Below are positions 13,263 through 37,684 of a stretch of DNA of 64,000 nucleotides, piece by piece; within the stretch, counting starts at the first letter, position 1, and each line of letters begins with the position of its first letter. The position numbers and the translations under genes were made by a program. Source of the stretch: Promethearchaeota archaeon (GTDB lineage: Archaea; Asgardarchaeota; Lokiarchaeia; Sigyniarchaeales; SOKP01); NCBI GenBank assembly GCA_048937405.1, contig JBHLNF010000003.1:216624-280623 (forward strand), in the 5' to 3' direction. Under the pieces are notes generated by a model, which was not told where the DNA came from, did not search any database, and saw only the letters and a program-made list of their open reading frames with translations.

Positions 13263-13499
13263 AATTATTTAAAATCTTATTTATTAAACAGATTTGAATA
13301 GAAATCTGTTTTATTTTAATAATTAACAAATATGTCAATATCTCTAGTTTATTCTTAATTCAAATAGATAAATCTACAGATTGACAATTTTAAAAATAGA
13401 GATTTTTAAGATTAACAAGTAACCTTTAAAATTTTGCTAATTTATTTTAAATATCTACAATCTATTTAAAATATAAATATACAACTAGTTGTGAAAAAC

Positions 13500-15425
13500 A
13501 TGAGTAAAACTAAGGATATACCTGTTCCGGATAAAGTTTCAGGTTTTACACAGGTCAGACTTGATGTAAATCTAACAGATGGAAAGATTAGTAAATCAAC
13601 ACTTTCTAATGAATTCTGTCGTGACTGGATTGGAGGTTATGGTTTTGGTGCTAAAGTACTTTGGGATGAATGTCCTGCTGGAGTTGATCCATTAAGCCCA
13701 GAAAATGTTTTTGTCTACGCTCATGGACCATTTCCAGGTACAATATTACCTACATCAAGTAAATATGGGGTATTTGCTAAATCTCCATTAACTGGTATGT
13801 TTGGAATGGCTATATCTTCAGGATCGGTTGGTGCTCAAGCCCGACGTGCTGGTATCAATATGATTGTTGTTAAAGGTAAGGCTCCAGAACCTGTGTATAT
13901 GGTTGTTGATGATGATGATTATTATTTAGTAAAATGCAAAGATTCCGTGTGGGGAAAGGGTTGCTGGGAAACAGAAGAACTTTTGAGAGAGGAATTCCAA
14001 GATCATCGTCTTGGAATAATGACTATTGGTCCAGGAGGCGAACGTGGAAGTTATATGGGATGTATAACAAATGATCGAAATAGACAAGCAGGGAGGACAG
14101 GTATGGGTGCTGTTATGGGATCAAAAAATCTAAAAGCAATATGCTTCAGAGGTACCAAGGGAATTAGTGTTGCTAATCCTGTCGAATTCTATAAATTAGC
14201 AAAGAAATTAATAAAAGTAGCAAATGGTCCTGCTACGGCTAAATATCGAGATTTAGGTACACCTGCAGGGATAACCAGTTATAATAAACTTGGAATGATG
14301 CCAACTTTCAACCATCGTGAGGGTACATGGGATAAGGTAGATGATGGAACTTTTACTGGTGATACATTAAACCAAGATTGGGTTGTAAAGAAGGTTGCTT
14401 GCTCGCAATGTTCAATAGGATGTGATCATATTACAAAAATACCTAAAGATCATCCTCATTGGCCTAATCTCTATTCTAGTATTGATCAAGAATTATGCTA
14501 TAGCTTTGGATCTGCTTGTGGAAATTATGATTGGCCATCTGTATTTAAATGTGTTTCATTAACAGATGATTTGGGTATTGACGCTATAAGCGGAGGTGTT
14601 ACAGCTGCTATGGCTTGTGAGTGTTATGAAGAAGGAATTATAACTAAAGAAGATTTAGGTTATGAATTACCTTTTGGATCAACTGTTAATCTCGTAAGAT
14701 TCACTGAAGAGATGATTCTTGGTAAAGGATTTGCAGGGAAGGTTTTTGGAGATGGTACAAGAGAAGCAGGAAAGCGATTAGAAGAAATGGGCAGAAAAAA
14801 TGCAAGTTATTATGGTATGCATATTAAGGGATTAGAAATACCTGCATTTGATGTACATGGTATGAATTCTTTTGCTGTTGGAATGAGTGTTTCTATTCGT
14901 GGTGCATGTCATTTACGGAATGGCTCATATGGTCTCGATGCTAAAGGAAATTTCGACAGATTTGGGTATGATAAACCACTTGAGAGAGGAAAAGCAATAA
15001 AAGATCTAGAAGATATATACGCTATAATTGATTCATATATCGTATGTAAATTTACTCGAGGTATCTATGAAAATGATGCTGAAATGGCAAAAGTGTTTGA
15101 ATTAGTAACAGGAATTCCAGTAACAGATAAATTTATACAACATAGAGGAGATGCCATTTTAAATCTTTCAAAGTGTTTTAACATCCGAGAAGGATGGACG
15201 AGAGATGATGATAGACCTCCTGAACGATTCTTCAAGCAACCACACACAAAAGGTCCAGCCAAGGGTGTTACCTTAAAGGAAGATGGTTATCAGAAATTAT
15301 TAAGTGGTTATTATGAAGCTCGAGGTTGGGATACTAAAACTGGAATTCCAACTGATGAAACATTGAAATCACTTGGATTAGATTTTGTAATTGGTAAATT
15401 AAAGCCCGCTGGAGGTAAGAAGTAA
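13500..15425 (+). CDS. aor: Tungsten-containing aldehyde:ferredoxin oxidoreductase (AOR family)
   Basis: AOR-type N-terminus (VRLDVNLTDGKI..DWIGGYGFGAKVLWDE). Fe-S/pterin region KKVACSQCSIGCDH. ~640 aa. The ORF track starts at GTG 13491; ATG 13500 is equally possible. Confidence 0.85.
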   Translation: MSKTKDIPVPDKVSGFTQVRLDVNLTDGKISKSTLSNEFCRDWIGGYGFGAKVLWDECPAGVDPLSPENVFVYAHGPFPGTILPTSSKYGVFAKSPLTGMFGMAISSGSVGAQARRAGINMIVVKGKAPEPVYMVVDDDDYYLVKCKDSVWGKGCWETEELLREEFQDHRLGIMTIGPGGERGSYMGCITNDRNRQAGRTGMGAVMGSKNLKAICFRGTKGISVANPVEFYKLAKKLIKVANGPATAKYRDLGTPAGITSYNKLGMMPTFNHREGTWDKVDDGTFTGDTLNQDWVVKKVACSQCSIGCDHITKIPKDHPHWPNLYSSIDQELCYSFGSACGNYDWPSVFKCVSLTDDLGIDAISGGVTAAMACECYEEGIITKEDLGYELPFGSTVNLVRFTEEMILGKGFAGKVFGDGTREAGKRLEEMGRKNASYYGMHIKGLEIPAFDVHGMNSFAVGMSVSIRGACHLRNGSYGLDAKGNFDRFGYDKPLERGKAIKDLEDIYAIIDSYIVCKFTRGIYENDAEMAKVFELVTGIPVTDKFIQHRGDAILNLSKCFNIREGWTRDDDRPPERFFKQPHTKGPAKGVTLKEDGYQKLLSGYYEARGWDTKTGIPTDETLKSLGLDFVIGKLKPAGGKK

Positions 15426-15980
15426 ATGTCAAAAGCCACAAAAAAGAGAGGCGGAGTAGTTCACCAATTCATTATAGTTGATCCAAACTTATGTACAGGA
15501 TGCGAAACCTGTGAATCAGTTTGTTCATTTGTTCATGATGGAGAATTCAATCCAATAAACACTAGAATTCATAGAGTCAGAATCGAACCCATTTTAAACG
15601 TTGCCTTAGCCTGCCAGAAATGTGATGATGCTCCATGTGTTCGTAGTTGTCCCGAAAAAGCCTTAGAACAAGATAAAAAAACAGGTTCAATTATCGTCGA
15701 TGATGATAAGTGCAATGGTTGCGCTTTTTGTATCCGCGCATGCGATTTTGGTGTTTTGAGTTTACATATTCAATCTCAAAAAGCTTTAATTTGCGATCTT
15801 TGTGAAACTATGAAGGAGGATTATATTGATCCCGAAAGGGGTGAAAAGTACCCAGCTTGCATTGATGTTTGTCCAAAGGAAGCAATCTCATTAAAAGATG
15901 TAGAACAAATAGGGGAAGAAAAGCGTATTGATGCTGTAAAGAGATTGTTCGGGGAGATATTAGAAGAAACTAAAGCGTAA
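15426..15980 (+). CDS. 4Fe-4S dicluster ferredoxin-type subunit, translationally abutting AOR
   Basis: CTGCETCESVC, CQKCDDAPCVRSCP, CNGCAFCIRAC, C..CIDVCP. The ATG directly follows the AOR stop (TAAATG at 15423-15428). Confidence 0.7.
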   Translation: MSKATKKRGGVVHQFIIVDPNLCTGCETCESVCSFVHDGEFNPINTRIHRVRIEPILNVALACQKCDDAPCVRSCPEKALEQDKKTGSIIVDDDKCNGCAFCIRACDFGVLSLHIQSQKALICDLCETMKEDYIDPERGEKYPACIDVCPKEAISLKDVEQIGEEKRIDAVKRLFGEILEETKA

Positions 15981-16098
15981 AACAAACTTTTTTTAAATAT
16001 CTTTTATTTTTTATTCTAATTTTTTGGATTTCAATTAAAAATTAATAATTATTACTTTTTTATGAAAGACTAAATATTTTTCAACTAAGATTATAATT

Positions 16099-16566
16099 AT
16101 GTACTCCCTAAGAAAAGCTAATTTCAATGATATTGATAAACTAATAAAGTTTCGTATTGAATTCTTAAAAGAAACTCAAGAGGCACCTAATGATGAGGAA
16201 ATGCAAATATTCAGAAAAACTCTCAAAGATTATTTTTTAGATAAAATGAAATCCAATGAGTTTATTGCTTGGTTGGCTGAATCTGATAAAAAAATCATCG
16301 CAACAAGTGGTTTATCTTTTTTACAGAGACCCCCTCATTTTGTCAATAAAATTGGAAAATTTGCTTATATTATGAATATGTATACCAGACCTAATTGGCG
16401 TAGAAAAGGAATTGGTTCAGCATTAATTGAGAAATTAATTGAAGAAATAAAGAAAAAAGGAATACAATCAGTAGTATTACATGCAACTCCCTCTGGAAGA
16501 CCATTATATGAAAAGTACGGTTTTAGAGAGAATGATGGTGATAAAGAAATGATATTAAAATTATAA
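16099..16566 (+). CDS. GNAT family N-acetyltransferase
   Basis: Acetyl-CoA motif A RRKGIGSALIEKLIEE. C-terminal LYEKYGF. Confidence 0.75.
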   Translation: MYSLRKANFNDIDKLIKFRIEFLKETQEAPNDEEMQIFRKTLKDYFLDKMKSNEFIAWLAESDKKIIATSGLSFLQRPPHFVNKIGKFAYIMNMYTRPNWRRKGIGSALIEKLIEEIKKKGIQSVVLHATPSGRPLYEKYGFRENDGDKEMILKL

Positions 16567-16922
16567 ATAATAATTAGGTTTAATCTTATCAATCATAATC
16601 AAAAAAACATTAATTAGTAACTTATGCATTTTAAGAAGAAAATTGATCAAAATTGATGCAATTTCAGAACTAATTGCACGGAAATGATAATATTATAACT
16701 CGTTTTTAACGATATTCGTCTATTCTAATTTTGTAAGTCTTTTAGGTATAATAATTACTATAAACTCATTAAACTTCAATGATAGGGAAATTACATGTCA
16801 TAATAATTTAATTTTAATAATATAGACTATTTATTTTATCATTAGAATTTCTGGGATTAGTATTAAAGACTAATCTAAGAGATTATCGATCTTTAAAATT
16901 TAGGAGGTTAAACTAACTAAAG

Positions 16923-18908
16923 GTGAATTATTTGTCTGATAAACAGACCAATGATAATAATAGCGAAGTTCAGCAAAGAATAGGTGTGTTTGTTTGCCAT
17001 TGAGGCGTCAATATCGCAGGAATTCTAGATATTCCTAAGATCGTCGAGGAAATAAATAAATTAGATAATGTTTGGGCCTATCCGTATTTATCATTATGTA
17101 CTGAAGGTGGATCTAGTGAAATTAAAGAAAAACATGAAGAAGTTAAATTTAATAGGGTCTTAGTTGCAGCTTGTACCCCAAAAACTCATCAACCAGTTTT
17201 TCATGCAATATTAAAAGAGATGGGATTACCTCCAAGATATTTAGAATTCGTAAACATTCGAGAACATTGTTCATTCGTACACCAAGCTCCAGAAGTGCGT
17301 GAAAAGGCTACTCTAAAAGCCATTGAATTAATCAAAGCTGGTATCGCTAGAGCAAAATTATTGGAAGATGTACCTACTAAAACTGTCCCAGTAGAACCAA
17401 CAGCTCTAGTGGTAGGAGGAGGAATTTCAGGTTTATCTGCTGCTATTGATCTAGGTGATGCTGGGTACAAAGTCTACTTAATTGAAAAAAATACAACCAT
17501 AGGTGGTCGCATGTCTCAGCTTGACAGAACATTCCCGACAGATGATTGTTCTATATGAATTTTGGGACCAAGAATGCTTGAAGCTAATCGTCATCCAAAC
17601 ATTGAAATCTTATCTTTTAGTGAAGTAGATAAAATAGATGGATATATCGGAAATTTCCAAGTAAATGTCAGAAGAAAAGCTCGATTTGTTCTTGAAGATA
17701 AATGCACAGGTTGTGGTACATGTACAGATGTATGCCCCGTTTATATAAGTAATTATTTTGATGAACATCTATCAGCAAGAAAAGTTATTGATATTGCATT
17801 TGCTCAAGCTGTACCTGCAATATCACAACTCGAAAGAGACGCATGCATTGAATGTTTTGCCTGTGTTGATGCCTGTGAACAATCAGCTATAGATTTTAGC
17901 CAGCAAGATGAGATCGTTGAACTTAAAGTTGGTACGATAGTAGTAGCGACTGGTTGGGATCTTTACAAAGGAGATGACTATGGTTATGGTACTTATGACA
18001 ATATAATTAATCAAATAGAATTAGAGAGGATTCTTGCTCCAAATGGACCAACATATGGCCATTTGAAACGACCTTCTGATGGTAAACGTCCTTCAAAAGT
18101 GCTCTTCATTAATTGTGTTGGATCAAGAGATATCAATAAAAATGCTCATTGTAGTGTTATTTGTTGTAATCTCTCACTAAAAAATTCTAAACTTATCAAA
18201 TCAGAGTATCCAGATTCACAAATCGTTTGTTGTTATATAGATATGAGATGTGCTGGAAAAGATTATGAAGAATACTATAGGAGATCTCGGGATGCAGGAA
18301 TAATTTTTGTTAAAGGATTGGTTGGAAAAATTGAAGAAGATCCATTAACTAAAAACCTTATAGTACAGTTTGAGCCAGTTGGAACAGATTCTGTAGTTAC
18401 TATGGAATTCCATATGGTAGTGTTGTCATCTGCTTCACTTCCATCTCAAGGTACAGTTGAAATTGCTAAAGTACTAAATATGGAAAAAAGTCCTGATGGA
18501 TTTTTAAAAGAATATCACGCTCGACTTGATCCAATTAGTACAAAAGTACCTGGAATATATATCTGTGGTTCTGCTCAAGGTCAGAAGGAAATTGATAAGG
18601 CAGTAAGTCAAGCGAGAGGAGCTGCATCTGTGGCAGGCATTCCAATGGGAAAAGGAGAATATACTATGGAATTAATTCGAGCTACTCCTTCGGATGAAAG
18701 ATGCGCAAAATGTTATAAATGCATAGAAGCATGCCCATATACAGCGATTTCTGTAAATGAAGAAGGTAATATCGTTGTTAACCTAATAAACTGTCGAGGC
18801 TGTGGAACTTGTGCATCTTTATGTCCATCGAAAGCAATTGAGTTAACTTACTATAGAGATGATCAATATATGGCATTAGTAGATGAATTACTGCCTATAG
18901 AGGAATAG
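16923..18908 (+). CDS. hdrA: Heterodisulfide reductase subunit A, selenoprotein (two in-frame UGA = Sec)
   Basis: My translation. The frame is open from GTG 16923 (AGGAGG at 16903-16908; in-frame TAA at 16914) to TAG 18906, except TGA 17001-17003 and TGA 17556-17558. Reads RIGVFVCH-U-GVNIAG and TFPTDDCSI-U-ILGPRM, both at Cys positions of conserved HdrA motifs. Also VVGGGISGLSAAIDL, NCVGSRD..HCSVICC and ferredoxin motifs CTGCGTCTDVCP and CRGCGTCASLCP. The ORF track shows only fragments 17220..17558 and 17562..18908. Confidence 0.8.
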
Positions 18909-18921
18909 AGAGGTAAAGAAA

Positions 18922-19386
18922 ATGACAAAAGAAAATGATAATGAAATCAAAATTATTGTGTTTGCTTGCTGGAAATGAGGATACGGTTCAGCTGATATGG
19001 CAGGTACTATTCGAGCCCAATATCCAGACTCGATTAGAAATGTTTTAGTACCTTGCTCAGGACGTGTAGGACCAGATTTAATTATGAGAGCATTTGGAAG
19101 AGGTGCCGATGGTGTAGTAATTAACGCTTGATATCCTGGTGAATGCGATTATGAGACTGGTAATTATCACGCATATCGACAAGTTGAATATATTAAAGAA
19201 ATACTAGAAGTAATTGGAATGAGTCCAGATAGATTAAAGATAATCTACTGTACCGCTGCTGAAGGTCAGAAATTTCAAAATGAAGCAATAGAAATTGATA
19301 AAACAATACGTAAATTAGGAATAAATCCTCTTCGTACGAAAAGCACACCTAAAAAAGAAAAAACTAAAGCTAAAGCAAAAGCTTGA
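18922..19386 (+). CDS. mvhD: MvhD/VhuD (FlpD-type) hydrogenase delta subunit-like protein, selenoprotein (two in-frame UGA = Sec)
   Basis: My translation from ATG 18922 (GAGGT 7 nt upstream): MTKENDNEIKIIVFACWK-U-GYGSADMAG..VPCSGRV..GADGVVINA-U-YPGECDYETGNYHA. TGA at 18976-18978 and 19129-19131 falls at Cys positions of the MvhD family. Terminal TGA at 19384-19386. Absent from the ORF track. Confidence 0.75.
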
Positions 19387-19400
19387 GTTATTAAATGTGT

Positions 19401-19446
19401 TTACTGATGAGATTGAGTTAAAAAAATGAGAACTCAGTTGAGGTAA
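19401..19446 (+). promoter_or_regulatory. Candidate SECIS element (kink-turn hairpin, AUGA..A-rich loop..GA) in the mvhD 3' UTR
   Basis: Hand fold. Helix I 19401-19405 (UUACU) pairs with 19442-19446 (GGUAA). 3-nt bulge at 19406-19408. Tandem sheared G19409.A19441 and A19410.G19440. 9-bp helix II 19411-19419 with 19431-19439. 11-nt apical loop AAAAAAAUGAG. Confidence 0.45.
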
Positions 19447-19571
19447 TGGATGCACCATATAACACATAAAAAAGTTTAATTATATTTAATAAAAATTTTA
19501 AAAATTGAATCAAAAATTTGGGAAATTTAAGAAAAAATAATTGGTTAATTAATAGTTAGAGTTGGAAATAC

Positions 19572-20711
19572 ATGGAAACCATGGCAGAATACTTAATAAA
19601 GATTGAAGATTTTTCTAAAATCTTAACAACTTTATTAAAAGAAAAAGCAGTGGATAAAATAATAGGGGCTGAATTGAGAGTTGATAAAAAATCTGGAACT
19701 ATTGATAGATTTACTGTTCAACCAAAATTAGTAGAAAAAGAGGAAGATCTAAAAGATTTTCCACTGACTCCTTTAATCGCATTTGGATACGCAAGAACGG
19801 ACTCTGCTTCTAAATTTTTGCATAAATCAGTAGCGGGTGCTATGAAAGAAAAAGTTGGACTTATAGCACGACCATGTGATACTAGAGCATTAATTGAACT
19901 CGCAAAGCTAAAACAAGTAAATCTTGATAATCTTTTTATAATTGGTATCGAAGATCGAGGTATGCTTCCAAAAGCAGGAAGAGAAATGAGAGCGATTAAA
20001 GATGTTGATCCTACTAAGATAATAAAAGAAAAAGTCGGAGATAACGGTCTAATCGTAAAATTTGAAGATGGAAAATCAAAAGAACTTAATCTTACGGTTG
20101 CGGAGAATTGTTTGAGATGTTATCGTAAAATCCCTATAATCGCAGATTTGACGGTTAGTGATCTCGGTATTCCAATTGATTCAGATGAGATTATCTTGAA
20201 AGTTTATTCTGAAAAAGGTAGTAATATTTTAGATAAATCTGGTATTAAAACAAAAAAACTTCCAGATAAAGAGAAGAAGACTCATTTAGATAAATATAAT
20301 GAAATTATTGCAAAAGCTAAAGAAAAAAGAGTAAAGGATTTGGAAGAATGGAAGAACTTATCACAAAAGGAAAAGATAACAGAATTACTTAAATGTACGA
20401 TGTGTAATACTTGTATAAGAGGATGTCCAGTGTGTTACTGTGTTGATTGTATCCTTATGAAAAAGAGAAAAGATAAAAATATTGACAAAGCAACTTATCA
20501 GTTAACACGAATCGCTCATGATGCGGATAGGTGTGTAGAATGTGGAAATTGTGATAACAACTGTCCTCAAAATTTACCGTTATCCCTCTATTTCCAGTCA
20601 TTAAATGACTCTTTTAAAGAAAAATTCGGTTATGAAGCAGGAATGTCTGTTGATGATATTCCATTTCGATCTGGTAAAGCAATTTCCCAGATGGAATTAG
20701 AGAAAACTTAA
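19572..20711 (+). CDS. FrhB/FdhB-like Fe-S protein (putative electron-input subunit linked to HdrA-MvhD)
   Basis: VGLIARPCDTRALIEL...LFIIGIE resembles the FrhB/FdhB core. Two ferredoxin motifs, CTMCNTCIRGCP and CVECGNCDNNCP. The family assignment is tentative. Confidence 0.4.
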   Translation: METMAEYLIKIEDFSKILTTLLKEKAVDKIIGAELRVDKKSGTIDRFTVQPKLVEKEEDLKDFPLTPLIAFGYARTDSASKFLHKSVAGAMKEKVGLIARPCDTRALIELAKLKQVNLDNLFIIGIEDRGMLPKAGREMRAIKDVDPTKIIKEKVGDNGLIVKFEDGKSKELNLTVAENCLRCYRKIPIIADLTVSDLGIPIDSDEIILKVYSEKGSNILDKSGIKTKKLPDKEKKTHLDKYNEIIAKAKEKRVKDLEEWKNLSQKEKITELLKCTMCNTCIRGCPVCYCVDCILMKKRKDKNIDKATYQLTRIAHDADRCVECGNCDNNCPQNLPLSLYFQSLNDSFKEKFGYEAGMSVDDIPFRSGKAISQMELEKT

Positions 20712-20853
20712 ACTATATTTTTTTAATTCTTTATTTTATTGTTTTATTAAAATAATAAAGATCTTTTTTAGAGAATTTTCTTCTTTTTTGTAAAAAAATA
20801 GGTATAAATATTGATATTTTTTTATCGTATTTAAAAAAATTTATGTGAAATTT

Positions 20854-21738
20854 ATGTTATTACAAAATATAGATGCCGAAATGGTATTTAATCTTCTAGT
20901 AGCTCCAGTACTCGCATGTAGTTTGCTTTTTGTTGCTTATTTGATACTACGAAAAAAAGGAAGAGGGATAAATTCCGCAGAGTTTAAGGTTATCTTCATG
21001 TTTCTTACAGCAATAGCGGTAATGGTAACCATTACAATATTAGTAAATGCAGTGTTTGAATATGGTGGTCTCCCTTTAATTTTTGGTTTTATCATAGGAA
21101 TCGGTTATATGTTATTTGGTTTATTTTACATCGGTAGGACGATTTATAGAGCAAATAATAAGATAAATAATTTATTAGAGAATGTAATCAAATCAAGCTC
21201 AGAAGTAGCTATCAATGTGGCTAACATTGCAGCAGAATTAGCGGCAAATGCTAGTGAGATAAATGCGTCATCCGAAGAGATCGCATCCTCTACAGCTGAA
21301 ACAACAAGCCTTACAGAAGGAATTATGAGAGCTTCAAGTGAAATAAATAATGTTAATGAACTAATTACAAACATAGCTGATCAAACAAATTTATTGGCGT
21401 TAAATGCCAGTATTGAAGCAGGTAGAGCTGGTGAACATGGGAGAGGGTTTGCGGTCGTAGCAGATGAAGTTCGAAAACTTGCAGAAGAATCAAAAAGAGC
21501 GGTGAGTAATACTGGCAGTAAGATTACAGATATAATAAAAAATATACAGCTTTCTTTTAATAATATGGAAGGAATAAGTTCGGCATCGGAACAACAAAGT
21601 GCTTCTATGGAAGAGATCACAGCAACTGCAAACAAATTAGGTATATTGGCAGAAGATTTAAAGGATACTCTGAAAGTATCAGATGAACCGACTAAGCAAA
21701 AAAAGAAAATCACCTTAAAAGCAATAAGGAAACATTAA
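20854..21738 (+). CDS. Minimal methyl-accepting chemotaxis protein (MCP-signal domain), copy 1
   Basis: Canonical MCP hairpin tip [39 protein letters not shown]. Three N-terminal hydrophobic helices, no HAMP. The ORF track starts at GTG 20845; ATG 20854 (MLLQN) matches the TTTATGTTATTACAA start context of copy 2. Confidence 0.85.
21181..21738 (+). repeat. MCP 3' cassette, copy 1 (near-identical DNA repeat)
   Basis: Starts at AATGTAATCAAATCAAGCTCAGAAGTAG. Aligns to 22752-23309 and 26313-26795 with only scattered mismatches. Confidence 0.85.
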
Positions 21739-22412: not shown

Positions 22413-23309
22413 ATGTTATTACAAGAAATACTTCTTTCCCGAGACCAAGAAATAATACTGTCCGAAATAATACAAACCATAGTTATTTTATCGTTGATGA
22501 TAGTTGCTTCACTTCTAATACTAAAAAGAATAAGAAAAGGAATAAAATCTCCTGAATTTAAGGTTGCTTTTATGTTTCTTTCATCGATTATGGTAATGAT
22601 AGTGATGGTAAAACTTATAGACTTTTTTGAAAAGACTGCTATAGCTCAAGCTTTTGGTTATGTCTTTGGAATTAGTTATATGATAGGGTGCCTATACTTA
22701 ATTATTAAAAGTACTATTAAAGCAAATAGTAAAGTGGATGATTTATCAGATAATGTGATCAAATCAAGCTCAGAAGTAGCTATCAATGTGGCTAACATTG
22801 CAGCAGAATTAGCGGCAAATGCTAGTGAGGTAAATGCGGCATCCGAAGAGATCGCATCCTCTACAGCTGAAACAACAAGCCTTACAGAAGGAATTATGAG
22901 AGCTTCAAGTGAAATAAATAATGTTAATGAACTAATTACAAACATAGCTGATCAAACAAATTTATTGGCGTTAAATGCCAGTATTGAAGCAGGTAGAGCT
23001 GGTGAACATGGGAGAGGGTTTGCGGTCGTAGCAGATGAAGTTCGAAAACTTGCAGAAGAATCAAAAAGAGCGGTGAGTAATACGGGCAGTAAGATTACAG
23101 ATATAATAAAAAATATACAACTCTCTTTTAATAATATGGAAGGAATAAGTTCTGCTGCCGAACAGCAAAGTGCTTCTATGGAAGAGATTACAGCAACTGC
23201 AAACAAATTAGGTACACTGGCAGAAGATTTAAAGGATACTCTGAAAGTAGCAGATGAACCGACTAAGCAAAAAAAGAAAATCACCTTAAAAGCAATAAGG
23301 AAATATTAA
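22413..23309 (+). CDS. Minimal methyl-accepting chemotaxis protein, copy 2
   Basis: Same MCP tip motif. The C-terminal ~185 aa are nearly identical to copies 1 and 3; the N-terminal membrane part is divergent. Confidence 0.85.
22752..23309 (+). repeat. MCP 3' cassette, copy 2
   Basis: See copy 1. Shares diagnostic substitutions with copy 3 ([20 protein letters not shown]), where copy 1 has [20 protein letters not shown]. Confidence 0.85.
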
Positions 23310-23378: not shown

Positions 23379-24650
23379 TTATAGGTATGAACTAAGAAAA
23401 CTAATTTTTTTAGGGAATAATATTTCAATTAAAGATTTTGATGATGATTTGATTATAGCATCCTTCACGATGTAATTTGTTTCATTAAATGTTCTATCTC
23501 CTAATATTAGTTTTAGAAAAAATGTACCGGGAATCATGAGATCAGTAATATCAGGATTCGGATGTTCTTTTTCACTTTTAATTTTCTGGATTTTTCCATT
23601 GACAAAATCTAGTATGATTGTTTTATGATAATTGGAAAATCTCATAGTTTTGGTTAAACCTTTAAATTCAGAATGTTGTACTCTCTTTTCAATTATTTCC
23701 TTAATTAGGTTAAAAAATGCTTCTAAATTGGGGATTTTTGCCTGCCATCCATAAGTCGAAATATGTATTCCTCCTAAATTTTTAATGAAACGATACAACG
23801 ACGAGTGTTCACTTATACTTAGAGTGATGATATCATCATTAGTATAGTTTCCCATAGTTTTAATAAATTGAAGTAAACTTATCATTTCATCTTTAGTTAA
23901 ATCTGGACAAATAATTTCATAACATTGATCATCATAACTCATTCCTAAGGAAAAGTAATTACTAGCTGCGTCAGATTCTTCAAAAATATATGTAGAACGT
24001 ATTTCTGAGTTAAATATGTCTTTTAAATACATAAACTTAAAACATTCTGAATCAAATTTGTTAAATATATAAAAATTCTCATAAAATTGATTATATTTTC
24101 TTTTAATAAAAGGAATATCGCTTTTTTTTGCTTTTCTAAAGTTGATGTTTTTATAGTTTTTATTTGGAATTTTTGAAACGGGAATAGCTATTCTCTCATC
24201 GAGAGATGAAACATATTCATATCCTAATTTACGATAAAAATATGGTATCCCTTTTATAACTGAAAGAATATAGTTATTTTGAGCCATTATATTTTCATAG
24301 AGATTGTTTAATTTTTTTATAAAACCTTTTCCTCTATATTCTTGGAGGGTTCCAACAAATTCCATTTCACATACAGGTAATGTGGTTCCTCCAATTTGCC
24401 ATTCTAAAGGAGAAAGACATAATGATGAAACTATTTTGTTTTCTCTATCATCTTTAATAAACAGCCATAAAATCTCACTTTTTCTTGGATGCTCTAAAAA
24501 TATGGAAGGAATATAGGTTCTTAATATCTCATTTTGATGAACTTTCATATTGAAATTAACTATAGCTTTTAATTCTTCTTCACTATCAGTAGCAATGTGA
24601 ATGCTGAAGTGATCGTCAACTTTTACACTATAACCTTTTTGAAGTTGCAT
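23379..24650 (-). CDS. GNAT acetyltransferase, Eis-like multidomain type
   Basis: GNAT motif A QEYRGKGFIKKLNNLYENIM. ~420 aa with a second GNAT-like and C-terminal domain, as in Eis-type enzymes (tentative). Confidence 0.5.
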   Translation of the reverse strand: MQLQKGYSVKVDDHFSIHIATDSEEELKAIVNFNMKVHQNEILRTYIPSIFLEHPRKSEILWLFIKDDRENKIVSSLCLSPLEWQIGGTTLPVCEMEFVGTLQEYRGKGFIKKLNNLYENIMAQNNYILSVIKGIPYFYRKLGYEYVSSLDERIAIPVSKIPNKNYKNINFRKAKKSDIPFIKRKYNQFYENFYIFNKFDSECFKFMYLKDIFNSEIRSTYIFEESDAASNYFSLGMSYDDQCYEIICPDLTKDEMISLLQFIKTMGNYTNDDIITLSISEHSSLYRFIKNLGGIHISTYGWQAKIPNLEAFFNLIKEIIEKRVQHSEFKGLTKTMRFSNYHKTIILDFVNGKIQKIKSEKEHPNPDITDLMIPGTFFLKLILGDRTFNETNYIVKDAIIKSSSKSLIEILFPKKISFLSSYL

Positions 24651-34715: not shown

Positions 34716-35489
34716 ATGTCGCTTCCATCAAAAAAAGCTATTCAAGTTGATGAGAATACAGTTAATTATGAGTATAAAATGTTAAACCATGTAATGTCGC
34801 TGGTTTACCACGAAGATAAATGCATTGAATGTGGATTTTGTCATCGAGTTTGCCCTGTTACTGTTTCAATTTATGATGAGCCTTTAAAAAAAACTGCAAT
34901 AGGAACACCAAAAGAGATGAGCATTGAATCAGACAAAAAAATCGTAGTTGATACAGAGAAATGTGTATGGTGTGGCTGTTGTACCTGGATCTGTCCAGGT
35001 TATACGTTAGAACTTTTCATAAATGGAGAGAAAAAGTTAAATGTTGTCGAGAATGGTTCACTTCCAGAATTCGAAGAAGAAGTAAGGACATTAGAAGATG
35101 GAAAAAAAGTTCGAAAAGTAGTAGAAGGTTCTATAACAATTACGTGTAATGAGAAAGATAAAAAAATAATAGAGGCATTTTGCGACGAATGTACCGTCAG
35201 TGCGATGGAAAGAAAGGATACTGAAATTGAAATAGATGGAGATAAATGCATTCTATGTTTTAAATGCTCTGAAGCAGCTAAGGAATATGATAATATTACT
35301 GTTGAAATTCATCGTGATAGATTTAAAAATGTAAAAGGAGAGCCTTCTTCTGTGTGGAATGGTATTATGTTAAGAGTTCTTGGAAAAGAAGGTAAAGTTA
35401 AGGGTATTTTGAGTCGAAGCCAAAATAAACTTGCTGATGCAGTTATGAGATTAATGGGAAAAGAATTTGAAGAAGAAGAGGAAGCTTAA
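34716..35489 (+). CDS. 4Fe-4S ferredoxin-domain (polyferredoxin-like) protein
   Basis: CIECGFCHRVCP, CVWCGCCTWICP, CILCFKCSEA. Confidence 0.6.
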   Translation: MSLPSKKAIQVDENTVNYEYKMLNHVMSLVYHEDKCIECGFCHRVCPVTVSIYDEPLKKTAIGTPKEMSIESDKKIVVDTEKCVWCGCCTWICPGYTLELFINGEKKLNVVENGSLPEFEEEVRTLEDGKKVRKVVEGSITITCNEKDKKIIEAFCDECTVSAMERKDTEIEIDGDKCILCFKCSEAAKEYDNITVEIHRDRFKNVKGEPSSVWNGIMLRVLGKEGKVKGILSRSQNKLADAVMRLMGKEFEEEEEA

Positions 35490-36676: not shown

Positions 36677-37684
36677 ATGGCAAAAAGAGTTGCAATCAAC
36701 GGTTTTGGGCGTATAGGACGTCTATTTTTCCGAGCTGTTTATGATAATTTCTGGAATGATATTGATATTGTGTCAATCAACGATCTTTTTGAACCAAAAT
36801 ATTTGGCGTATGCGTTAAAATATGACTCTGTCTTTGGAAGATTTAAAGGAAAAGTAGAATCTACTGAAAACTCATTGATAATTGATGGTAAGAACATACC
36901 AATAACTGCTGAGAGAGATCCTGCAGCTTTACCACATGCTAGCAATAATATTGATGTTGCTGTTGAATCTACTGGTCGATTCGTAAATAGAGAAGGAGCT
37001 AGTAAGCATTTAACTGCTGGGGCAAAAAGAGTTTTAATTAGTGCTCCCGCAACAGATCCAGATATTACTGTTGTTCTTGGATGTAATGATGATAAATTAA
37101 CAAGTGATCATAAAATTATTTCAAATGCATCTTGTACGACTAATTGTTTAGCTCCCGTAGTAAAAGTTTTACAAGAATCTGTAAAAATTAAGTACGGTAT
37201 AATGACTACAATCCATTCGTATACTAATGATCAATCCACAGCAGATATAGCACGTGCTGGAACTCCAGAGAAAATGATCCGAGGAAGAGCTGCCGCAGCC
37301 AACATGATCCCAACTTCAACGGGAGCAGCTAAAGCTATTGGATTGGTTTTTCCTGAATTGCAAGGAAAATTAGATGGAATAGCAATGAGAGTTCCAACTC
37401 CAGATGGTAGTGTTGTAGATCTTAAAGCAGTAGTCGAGAATCCAATCTCAGCAGTAGAGATTAATGCAAAGATGAGAGAAGCAGCTAACGGATCCTTAAA
37501 GGGTATCTTAGATTATACCGATGATCCAATAGTAAGTAGTGATATTGTTGGAAATCCTCATAGTTCTGTCTTTAGTAGCCTCTGGACGAAAGTAATCAAT
37601 GATGAAGTCTCCGTTTTATCATGGTACGATAATGAATGGGGATTTTCTAACCGTATGGCTGAATTAATCATTAAAAAGCTATAA
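36677..37684 (+). CDS. gap: Glyceraldehyde-3-phosphate dehydrogenase, class I (bacterial/eukaryotic type)
   Basis: VAINGFGRIGRLFFRA, active site SNASCTTNCLAP, WYDNEWGFS. 335 aa. Confidence 0.9.
   Translation: MAKRVAINGFGRIGRLFFRAVYDNFWNDIDIVSINDLFEPKYLAYALKYDSVFGRFKGKVESTENSLIIDGKNIPITAERDPAALPHASNNIDVAVESTGRFVNREGASKHLTAGAKRVLISAPATDPDITVVLGCNDDKLTSDHKIISNASCTTNCLAPVVKVLQESVKIKYGIMTTIHSYTNDQSTADIARAGTPEKMIRGRAAAANMIPTSTGAAKAIGLVFPELQGKLDGIAMRVPTPDGSVVDLKAVVENPISAVEINAKMREAANGSLKGILDYTDDPIVSSDIVGNPHSSVFSSLWTKVINDEVSVLSWYDNEWGFSNRMAELIIKKL

Follow-up and report, generated by a model that had tools for sequence, protein, structure and literature searches.

The selenocysteine insertion sequence (SECIS) element described in Lokiarchaeota, lokiSECIS, has a core composed of an AUGA motif, a 9-base-pair (bp) stem, an 11-nucleotide (nt) loop in which the first five positions are mostly A and the ultraconserved last G is usually preceded by A, and a GA after the stem (Mariotti 2016, PMC4989117). 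It is found as a single copy a few nt past the stop codon of VhuD and is common to the tandem HdrA-VhuD genes, where it would act on up to six UGA codons over about 2 kb; the VhuD stop codon may be UGA, the HdrA stop codon never (Mariotti 2016, PMC4989117). Work on more than 400 Asgard genomes has since described a 'type I eSECIS-like' structure of hdrA/frhD, using a general model with a main stem of 7-15 bp and up to 2 mismatches (Huang 2024, PMC11227280). The DNA considered here, referred to as the window, is the whole 64,000-nt stretch of contig JBHLNF010000003.1 of a Promethearchaeota archaeon, with a G+C content of about 29%, and all positions given are those of the window. At 19401-19446 it carries a hairpin just downstream of hdrA and mvhD (also named vhuD), and this hairpin is very probably an orthologue of lokiSECIS, which is the eukaryote-like SECIS (Asgard type I) found behind vhuD/mvhD in the Lokiarchaeial hdrA-vhuD operon. 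Every sequence and position feature of lokiSECIS recurs (AUGA, 9-bp stem, 11-nt A-rich loop ending in AG, GA, single copy after vhuD), as do the very short hdrA-vhuD spacer, the multiple predicted selenocysteine (Sec) codons over about 2 kb and a UGA stop codon on vhuD only; no defining feature differs. Neither the hairpin nor its reach across the gene pair is novel, both having been reported in 2016 and 2024. The peptides of the window are absent from the supplementary protein sets of Huang 2024, and look-ups for exact protein matches gave none.

The sequence of the hairpin is UUACUGAUGAGAUUGAGUUAAAAAAAUGAGAACUCAGUUGAGGUAA. It begins 15 nt past the mvhD stop codon, which is a UGA lying 20 nt upstream of the AUGA core, and consists of the following parts, with conservation counted over 73 orthologous 3' untranslated regions (UTRs).

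19402-19405, + strand: 5' strand of helix I, UACU; pairing conserved at C19404 and U19405 only
19407-19410, + strand: AUGA, 5' half of the predicted SECIS core (kink-turn-type); U, G and A invariant, leading A in 72/73
19411-19419, + strand: 5' strand of helix II, 9 nt; two-sided changes in 8/9 pairs, 95.4% of alignment cells paired
19420-19430, + strand: apical loop AAAAAAAUGAG, 11 nt; A run nearly invariant, last G invariant, preceding A in 72/73
19431-19439, + strand: 3' strand of helix II; pairs with 19411-19419 without mismatch, with two G.U pairs
19440-19441, + strand: GA, 3' half of the predicted SECIS core; G in 72/73 (one A), A invariant
19442-19445, + strand: 3' strand of helix I, GGUA; G19443 invariant, U19444 in 1/73 (this window only)

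The original prediction, folded by hand, had proposed helix I, a G19406-A19407-U19408 bulge, tandem G19409.A19441 and A19410.G19440 pairs, helix II and the loop, and every pair that it listed can form. In the minimum free energy (MFE) structure of the 46-mer, RNAfold reproduces helix II with its loop as well as four pairs of helix I, at -9.7 kcal/mol compared with a mean of -4.45 for dinucleotide shuffles (z = -2.8), of which 1 in 200 was equally stable. The 5-bp helix I held up only in part. While all of its pairs are possible in this sequence, those conserved across the 73 orthologues are C19404-G19443, which is invariant, and U19405-R19442, which is U-A or U.G in all but one; the outer pairs 19402-19445 and 19403-19444 are broken in 36/73 and 58/73, respectively. 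When a longer context is folded, U19401 pairs with A19461 and A19446 with U19458, not with each other. A private A-to-U change at 19444, where the other orthologues have A or G, creates the A19403-U19444 pair; helix I, the stem below the putative kink-turn (K-turn), is thereby longer and more canonical in this genome.

Related loci were collected by scanning the C-terminal 448 amino acids of HdrA against one genome per species, which gave 80 loci with a best HdrA match of 95% protein identity. The loci with an assigned phylum belong to Promethearchaeota (Lokiarchaeia) or to other Asgard metagenome-assembled genomes, except for one Nanopelagicaceae label, and many are named only 'uncultured archaeon'. 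The locus labelled 'Candidatus Nanopelagicaceae bacterium' (L058, DATKTW010000168.1) has a Lokiarchaeial-type hdrA-mvhD with four UGAs and the SECIS, as well as an HdrA 80% identical to that of the window, and its contig is probably a mis-binned Asgard one. The element is present in 73 orthologous mvhD 3' UTRs, 11-21 nt past the stop codon, and these distinct UTRs, all of which follow Sec-type genes, were aligned using MAFFT (alignment A1). A first scan with a strict pattern had overlooked the closest relatives (L001-L004) and others, in which the loop has 12-13 nt or the 3' strand a 1-nt bulge; the element was found in them on inspection.

Covariation in orthologous hdrA-mvhD 3' UTRs, named beforehand as a check of the fold, was found in these 73 operons. 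By pair count, 8 of the 9 helix II pairs show two-sided changes, and RNAalifold recovers helix II with compensatory changes in seven of the eight pairs that it predicts. For the full proposed structure, 91% of the cells are paired, versus 32-47% after a shift of the 3' partners by 1-3 columns, and the observed values were reached in none of 500 shuffles. Invariant positions are the last three bases of AUGA, the A of GA, the final G of the loop and, within its A run, three A's in a row; GA stands 3' of the stem in 72 sequences, with AA in the remaining one.

The two genes upstream of the hairpin contain four in-frame UGAs, listed here in order along the DNA.

16923-18908, + strand: hdrA (heterodisulfide reductase subunit A); start GTG 16923 or TTG 16932, stop TAG 18906-18908
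17001-17003, + strand: in-frame UGA no. 1, hdrA residue 27, predicted Sec; opposite a Cys of the 9sfi_A motif vfvCyCg; a stop codon in all covering orthologues
17556-17558, + strand: in-frame UGA no. 2, hdrA residue 212, the canonical HdrA Sec site; opposite the X of 9sfi_A ddcamXil; stop codon conserved
18922-19386, + strand: mvhD/vhuD (FlpD family, 154 amino acids); start ATG 18922, stop TGA 19384-19386
18976-18978, + strand: in-frame UGA no. 3, mvhD residue 19, predicted Sec; opposite a Cys of the 5odc_D motif fCCnwCtyg; a stop codon in all orthologues
19129-19131, + strand: in-frame UGA no. 4, mvhD residue 70, predicted Sec; opposite a Cys of the 5odc_D motif vggCh; a stop codon in all orthologues

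With the UGAs set to Cys, the HdrA translation matches a solved methanogen HdrA chain, 9sfi_A, from end to end (E = 1.5e-203), and its Pfam domains are Fer4 and FAD. MvhD, treated in the same way, matches Pfam FlpD (E = 4.6e-42) and the structure 5odc_D (E = 1.1e-33). The X in the ddcamXil motif of 9sfi_A is taken to be the deposited Sec, and the canonical Sec of HdrA has been placed at about residue 200 (Mariotti 2016, PMC4989117). At each of the four UGA positions, every covering Asgard locus (up to 76, the window included) has a stop codon. Together with the Cys and Sec residues opposite them, this identifies the four UGAs as predicted Sec codons and not as stops of pseudogenes. Genome-wide reassignment of UGA was rejected, as UGA ends three other long open reading frames (ORFs) of the window without room for continuation. 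At HdrA residue 59 (17095-17097), this genome has Cys, and about ten orthologues, including L015, L022, L024-L026, L053, L055, L057 and L058, have a UGA that would encode a third Sec, so that the predicted number of Sec residues per HdrA varies among close relatives.

The spacer between the hdrA stop and the mvhD ATG is 13 nt, and the four UGAs lie 278 to about 2,400 nt upstream, the farthest at about 2.4 kb; the gene context on which the original prediction was built, including the 15 nt to the hairpin, is as it had described. From the short spacer, it had been proposed that one element may serve both cistrons, and no other such hairpin had been noticed near the operon. A strict descriptor (ATGA, 9 bp, 11 nt, GA or AA, no mismatch) has a single match on both strands of the 64 kb. 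A covariance model built from alignment A1 (model R1) gives its top match at 19389-19480 with 97 bits, as expected with the window itself in the seed alignment, and nothing else above 19 bits with filters off. Thus, neither the strict pattern nor the model provides a second copy in the window. The second-best model match (34855-34945, 19 bits) was rejected, as it lies within the ORF 34716-35489 and has most pairs broken.

The stop codons of the two genes also differ. The hdrA gene ends in TAA or TAG, never UGA, in 76 of 76 operons, and mvhD ends in UGA in 8 of the 76, the window included. Such an asymmetry would be expected if UGAs beyond a minimal distance upstream of the element are recoded, whereas a UGA about 20 nt away is not, and it gives indirect support for an element that may reach into hdrA. 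The UGA stop of mvhD in the window (19384-19386) is thereby the minority state, and it fits the minimal-distance rule proposed by Mariotti 2016.

It could be argued that the SECIS serves only the two UGAs of mvhD, and that those of hdrA, which lie in another cistron at a distance of 1.9-2.4 kb, use a different signal. Action of a SECIS across a cistron boundary, or over 2.4 kb in a prokaryote, is without experimental precedent in any domain, and the reach into hdrA is deduced only from the lack of a second element. Yet, neither the model nor the pattern finds a second copy in hdrA, in the 13-nt spacer or upstream, and a descriptor of the methanogen GAA_A SECIS, run over 16801-19571, gives none in the 3' UTR and one candidate in the transcript, which is loose and lacks a GC clamp. 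In addition, RNAz gave no other conserved structure (Mariotti 2016, PMC4989117), and the absence of UGA among the hdrA stops compared with its presence among those of mvhD argues that UGAs of the hdrA region fall within the reach of the element. A SECIS restricted to mvhD is therefore considered unlikely. That a single element would serve both cistrons is supported by the single copy, the conservation of the UGAs, the stop-codon asymmetry and the match to lokiSECIS.

A hairpin at this site could also be a 3'-end terminator or an mRNA-stability structure unrelated to selenocysteine, as it lies past the last gene of the operon, within an AT-rich intergenic stretch of 185 nt, and as the whole 192-nt UTR folds without unusual stability (z = -0.9). 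However, no U run follows the stem, where the sequence reads GAGGUAAUGG. The AUGA, the GA, the A run of the loop and its terminal G are more conserved than the freely covarying stem; unpaired bases that stay fixed while the stem varies with compensation argue for a specific recognition element and not for a generic terminator hairpin. The element moreover accompanies UGA-containing genes in every locus, and its relatives follow genes for an hdrA paralogue and for Prx-like selenoproteins, which makes a terminator or stability structure very unlikely.

Comparison with the known SECIS types was used to place the element further. Like eukaryotic SECIS form 1 (RF00031), it is located in a 3' UTR, has an AUGA...GA core with predicted tandem sheared G.A pairs in a K-turn-like motif and unpaired adenines at the start of the loop, and would act at a distance. 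It differs in that its loop ends, on the 3' side, with an additional conserved ...UGAG, that the mRNA served is predicted to be polycistronic and that the element is embedded in a three-way junction. The eukaryotic AUGA_AA_GA layout that had been assigned to the hairpin thus holds for the AUGA...GA quartet and the unpaired AA of the loop, but not for the covariance model of RF00031, which gives no match. The SECIS of VhuD in Methanococcales and Methanopyrus shares the gene, the 3' UTR position, two Sec codons per element and an AUGA motif; it combines a GAA_A kink-turn-like loop with GC clamps and an extra AUGA...GAC/AAC, and the GAA_A loop is absent here. With no candidate for the methanogen descriptor in the mvhD 3' UTR, the earlier view that the hairpin is not of the GAA_A type is borne out. 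The methanogen hdrA, for its part, would have had its own SECIS (Mariotti 2016, PMC4989117).

The core also resembles standard K-turns (Kt-7, box C/D, the U4 5' stem-loop), sharing a 3-nt R-A-U bulge followed by tandem G.A/A.G pairs beside a regular helix, with CUGAUGA (19404-19410) resembling a C box. Unlike in standard K-turns, only two pairs of the canonical stem are conserved ahead of the junction, and there is no D box or guide; the K-turn geometry itself is predicted. Archaeal L7Ae binds K-turns generally, and the hairpin might be a K-turn that L7Ae binds for a different purpose, for example as a small RNA of the box C/D kind or in translational regulation. Among the Rfam matches, the top one is indeed a C/D small nucleolar RNA, SNORD64, yet its 14.5 bits (E = 6.8) are not significant and fall far short of the 40-bit gathering score. 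Of the 73 sequences, 37 have A at position 19406, 31 have G and 5 have U, so that the C-box-like UGAUGA is not conserved. Furthermore, the conserved 73-nt unit around the hairpin contains no D, C' or D' boxes and no guide region, the element keeps a fixed position 11-21 nt past a selenoprotein stop, and L7Ae binding would also be compatible with a SECIS function. Such a separate role is even less probable than that of a terminator. Finally, a chance hairpin in AT-rich sequence is hardly credible: two looser matches with 10-nt loops in coding regions of the window demonstrate that a relaxed pattern does arise by chance, but for the strict pattern dinucleotide shuffles predict 0.03 matches per window, and the element covaries in 73 orthologous loci, by which this explanation is already refuted. 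The two looser matches (23625-23658 on the + strand within a minus-strand ORF, and 37521-37554 within the ORF 36677-37684) have ATGA, 9 bp and AA, but no A run or AG ending, and were set aside as chance.

A lokiSECIS acting on both genes would require that hdrA and mvhD are carried on one mRNA ending beyond 19467. The AUGA/GA core would then adopt a fold of the K-turn type beneath the 9-bp stem and, together with the A-rich loop ending in AG, may recruit the archaeal Sec-specific elongation factor with Sec-tRNA(Sec), either directly or via a putative SECIS-binding protein. From the 3' UTR, the element would exert its effect over a distance, on ribosomes that pause at any of the four UGAs, and selenocysteine would be inserted there. 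The mvhD UGA stop, 20 nt before the AUGA core, is presumably too close for recoding and would terminate translation.

Several points weigh against a SECIS function of the element. The function of Asgard SECIS elements has been deduced computationally, and the only experimental test found, in a heterologous Methanococcus maripaludis reporter, reported the lokiarchaeal SECIS as non-functional (PMC11881835). SBP2 was not detected in Lokiarchaeota (Mariotti 2016, PMC4989117), and no SBP2 homologue is known in Asgard archaea. Rfam gives no SECIS family in the window at the gathering score, nor in 19300-19600 at E <= 10, RF00031 included; only noise was found in the latter region, namely SNORD64 and a long non-coding RNA fragment. 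The same absence of an Rfam SECIS match applies to lokiSECIS (Mariotti 2016, PMC4989117). The canonical stem of the putative K-turn, at 2 conserved bp, is short for a standard K-turn. Alignment A1 consists of Sec-type operons, and a specificity of the element to UGA-containing genes is argued from these. In addition, no tRNA(Sec), and no tRNA gene at all, is present in the window, which was not scanned for proteins of the Sec machinery such as SelB/EFSec, PSTK, SepSecS and SPS; the Sec competence of this genome is accordingly deduced from its relatives.

The hairpin is part of a larger conserved unit of 73 nt (19395-19467), which comprises an outer helix P1, the SECIS arm and a side hairpin P3. 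In addition to the SECIS arm, its features are the following.

19395-19401, + strand: 5' arm of P1, AUGUGUU; pairs with 19461-19467 in MFE folds, 93.5% of cells paired in the 73 sequences, little variation
19446-19458, + strand: side hairpin P3, AUGG, loop AUGCA, CCAU; AUGG 19446-19449 pairs with CCAU 19455-19458, 99.7% paired, almost invariant; GC of the loop invariant
19461-19467, + strand: 3' arm of P1, AACACAU; partner of 19395-19401

As P1 and P3 are nearly invariant in the main family, alignment A1 says little for or against them. More divergent loci are informative in this respect: RNAfold gives the same junction from divergent P1 and P3 sequences for an hdrA paralogue (L075, L076 and L079) and for Helarchaeota (L070 and L073), and the P3 loops of the divergent loci end in GCA(A). 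In L080 (Sigynarchaeum), the same arrangement can be drawn by eye, but the RNAfold MFE structure differs. This support comes from single-sequence folds and inspection, and not from a statistical test of covariation. Each hdrA paralogue has its own SECIS junction about 50-80 nt past the hdrA stop (L075:4408-4479, L076:4390-4461, L079:4390-4462), no adjacent mvhD, and extra predicted Sec codons at HdrA residues 84, 314 and 398; the core of L079 is AGGA, not AUGA. Below the core, the main texts of the key papers have a lower stem and an internal loop, whereas alignment A1 has a three-way junction with a side hairpin. Neither the junction nor the side hairpin was found in those main texts (Mariotti 2016; Huang 2024), nor in a literature search on SECIS 'three-way junction'. 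Of all the features described here, only the extended three-way-junction architecture may be new.

A similar junction is seen in a subfamily of Prx-like selenoproteins that begin with MKDKF... and carry UPYC as their Sec motif, for which proteins from the Huang 2024 supplement were used to retrieve metagenomic loci. The 3' UTRs of these genes (L082:1540-1610 and equivalents in about 40 metagenome loci of L081-L134, alignment A3) have a conserved three-way junction with P1 GAUUUGG/CCAAAUC, an arm of 9-11 bp with an A-rich loop ending in AUGA(N), and a side-hairpin loop UAGCCA. Two-sided changes are present in 17 of its 23 pairs, and 91% of the cells are paired. The Prx-like element lacks the AUGA...GA core at the base of the arm. 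The hdrA-mvhD and Prx-like families have the junction in common, and also a side-hairpin loop that contains GC, the length of the stem and an A-rich loop with AUGA near its 3' end. This suggests, as a lead from two gene families, that the Lokiarchaeial recognition unit may be more than a K-turn. Many Prx-like loops read (U/G)GA...AAUGA(N) and could close as tandem sheared G.A pairs. From these loops, a second K-turn in the apical loop (K-loop) was considered; in hdrA-mvhD, the required G is U in 7/73 and the 5' GA is mostly AA.

The operon is flanked by further genes. Upstream, 13491-16566 encodes an aldehyde:ferredoxin oxidoreductase, a 4Fe-4S dicluster protein and a GNAT acetyltransferase, with the start of the second gene overlapping the stop of the first; they are followed by a 350-nt AT-rich gap (16567-16922), which presumably contains the hdrA promoter. 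Downstream lie a gene for an FrhB/FdhB-C-like protein with two [4Fe-4S] motifs (19572-20711) and two genes with a methyl-accepting chemotaxis signalling domain (20845-21738 and 22413-23309).

For the hairpin itself, one more genome adds little, except that 73 operons independently replicate the covariation, the rule of one copy and the difference in stop codons. It could be speculated, though tentatively and with more doubt than confidence, that the functional unit is the whole 73-nt junction and not a eukaryote-style stem-loop, in which case Lokiarchaeial recoding may rest on the junction together with its side hairpin and the apical loop, with the K-turn as an option. A minimal hairpin like that tested in M. 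maripaludis may then lack required parts, which bears on the design of reporter and pull-down experiments. If true, lokiSECIS would no longer be a short eukaryotic-type SECIS, and the junction would define a bait for the archaeal SECIS-binding factor.

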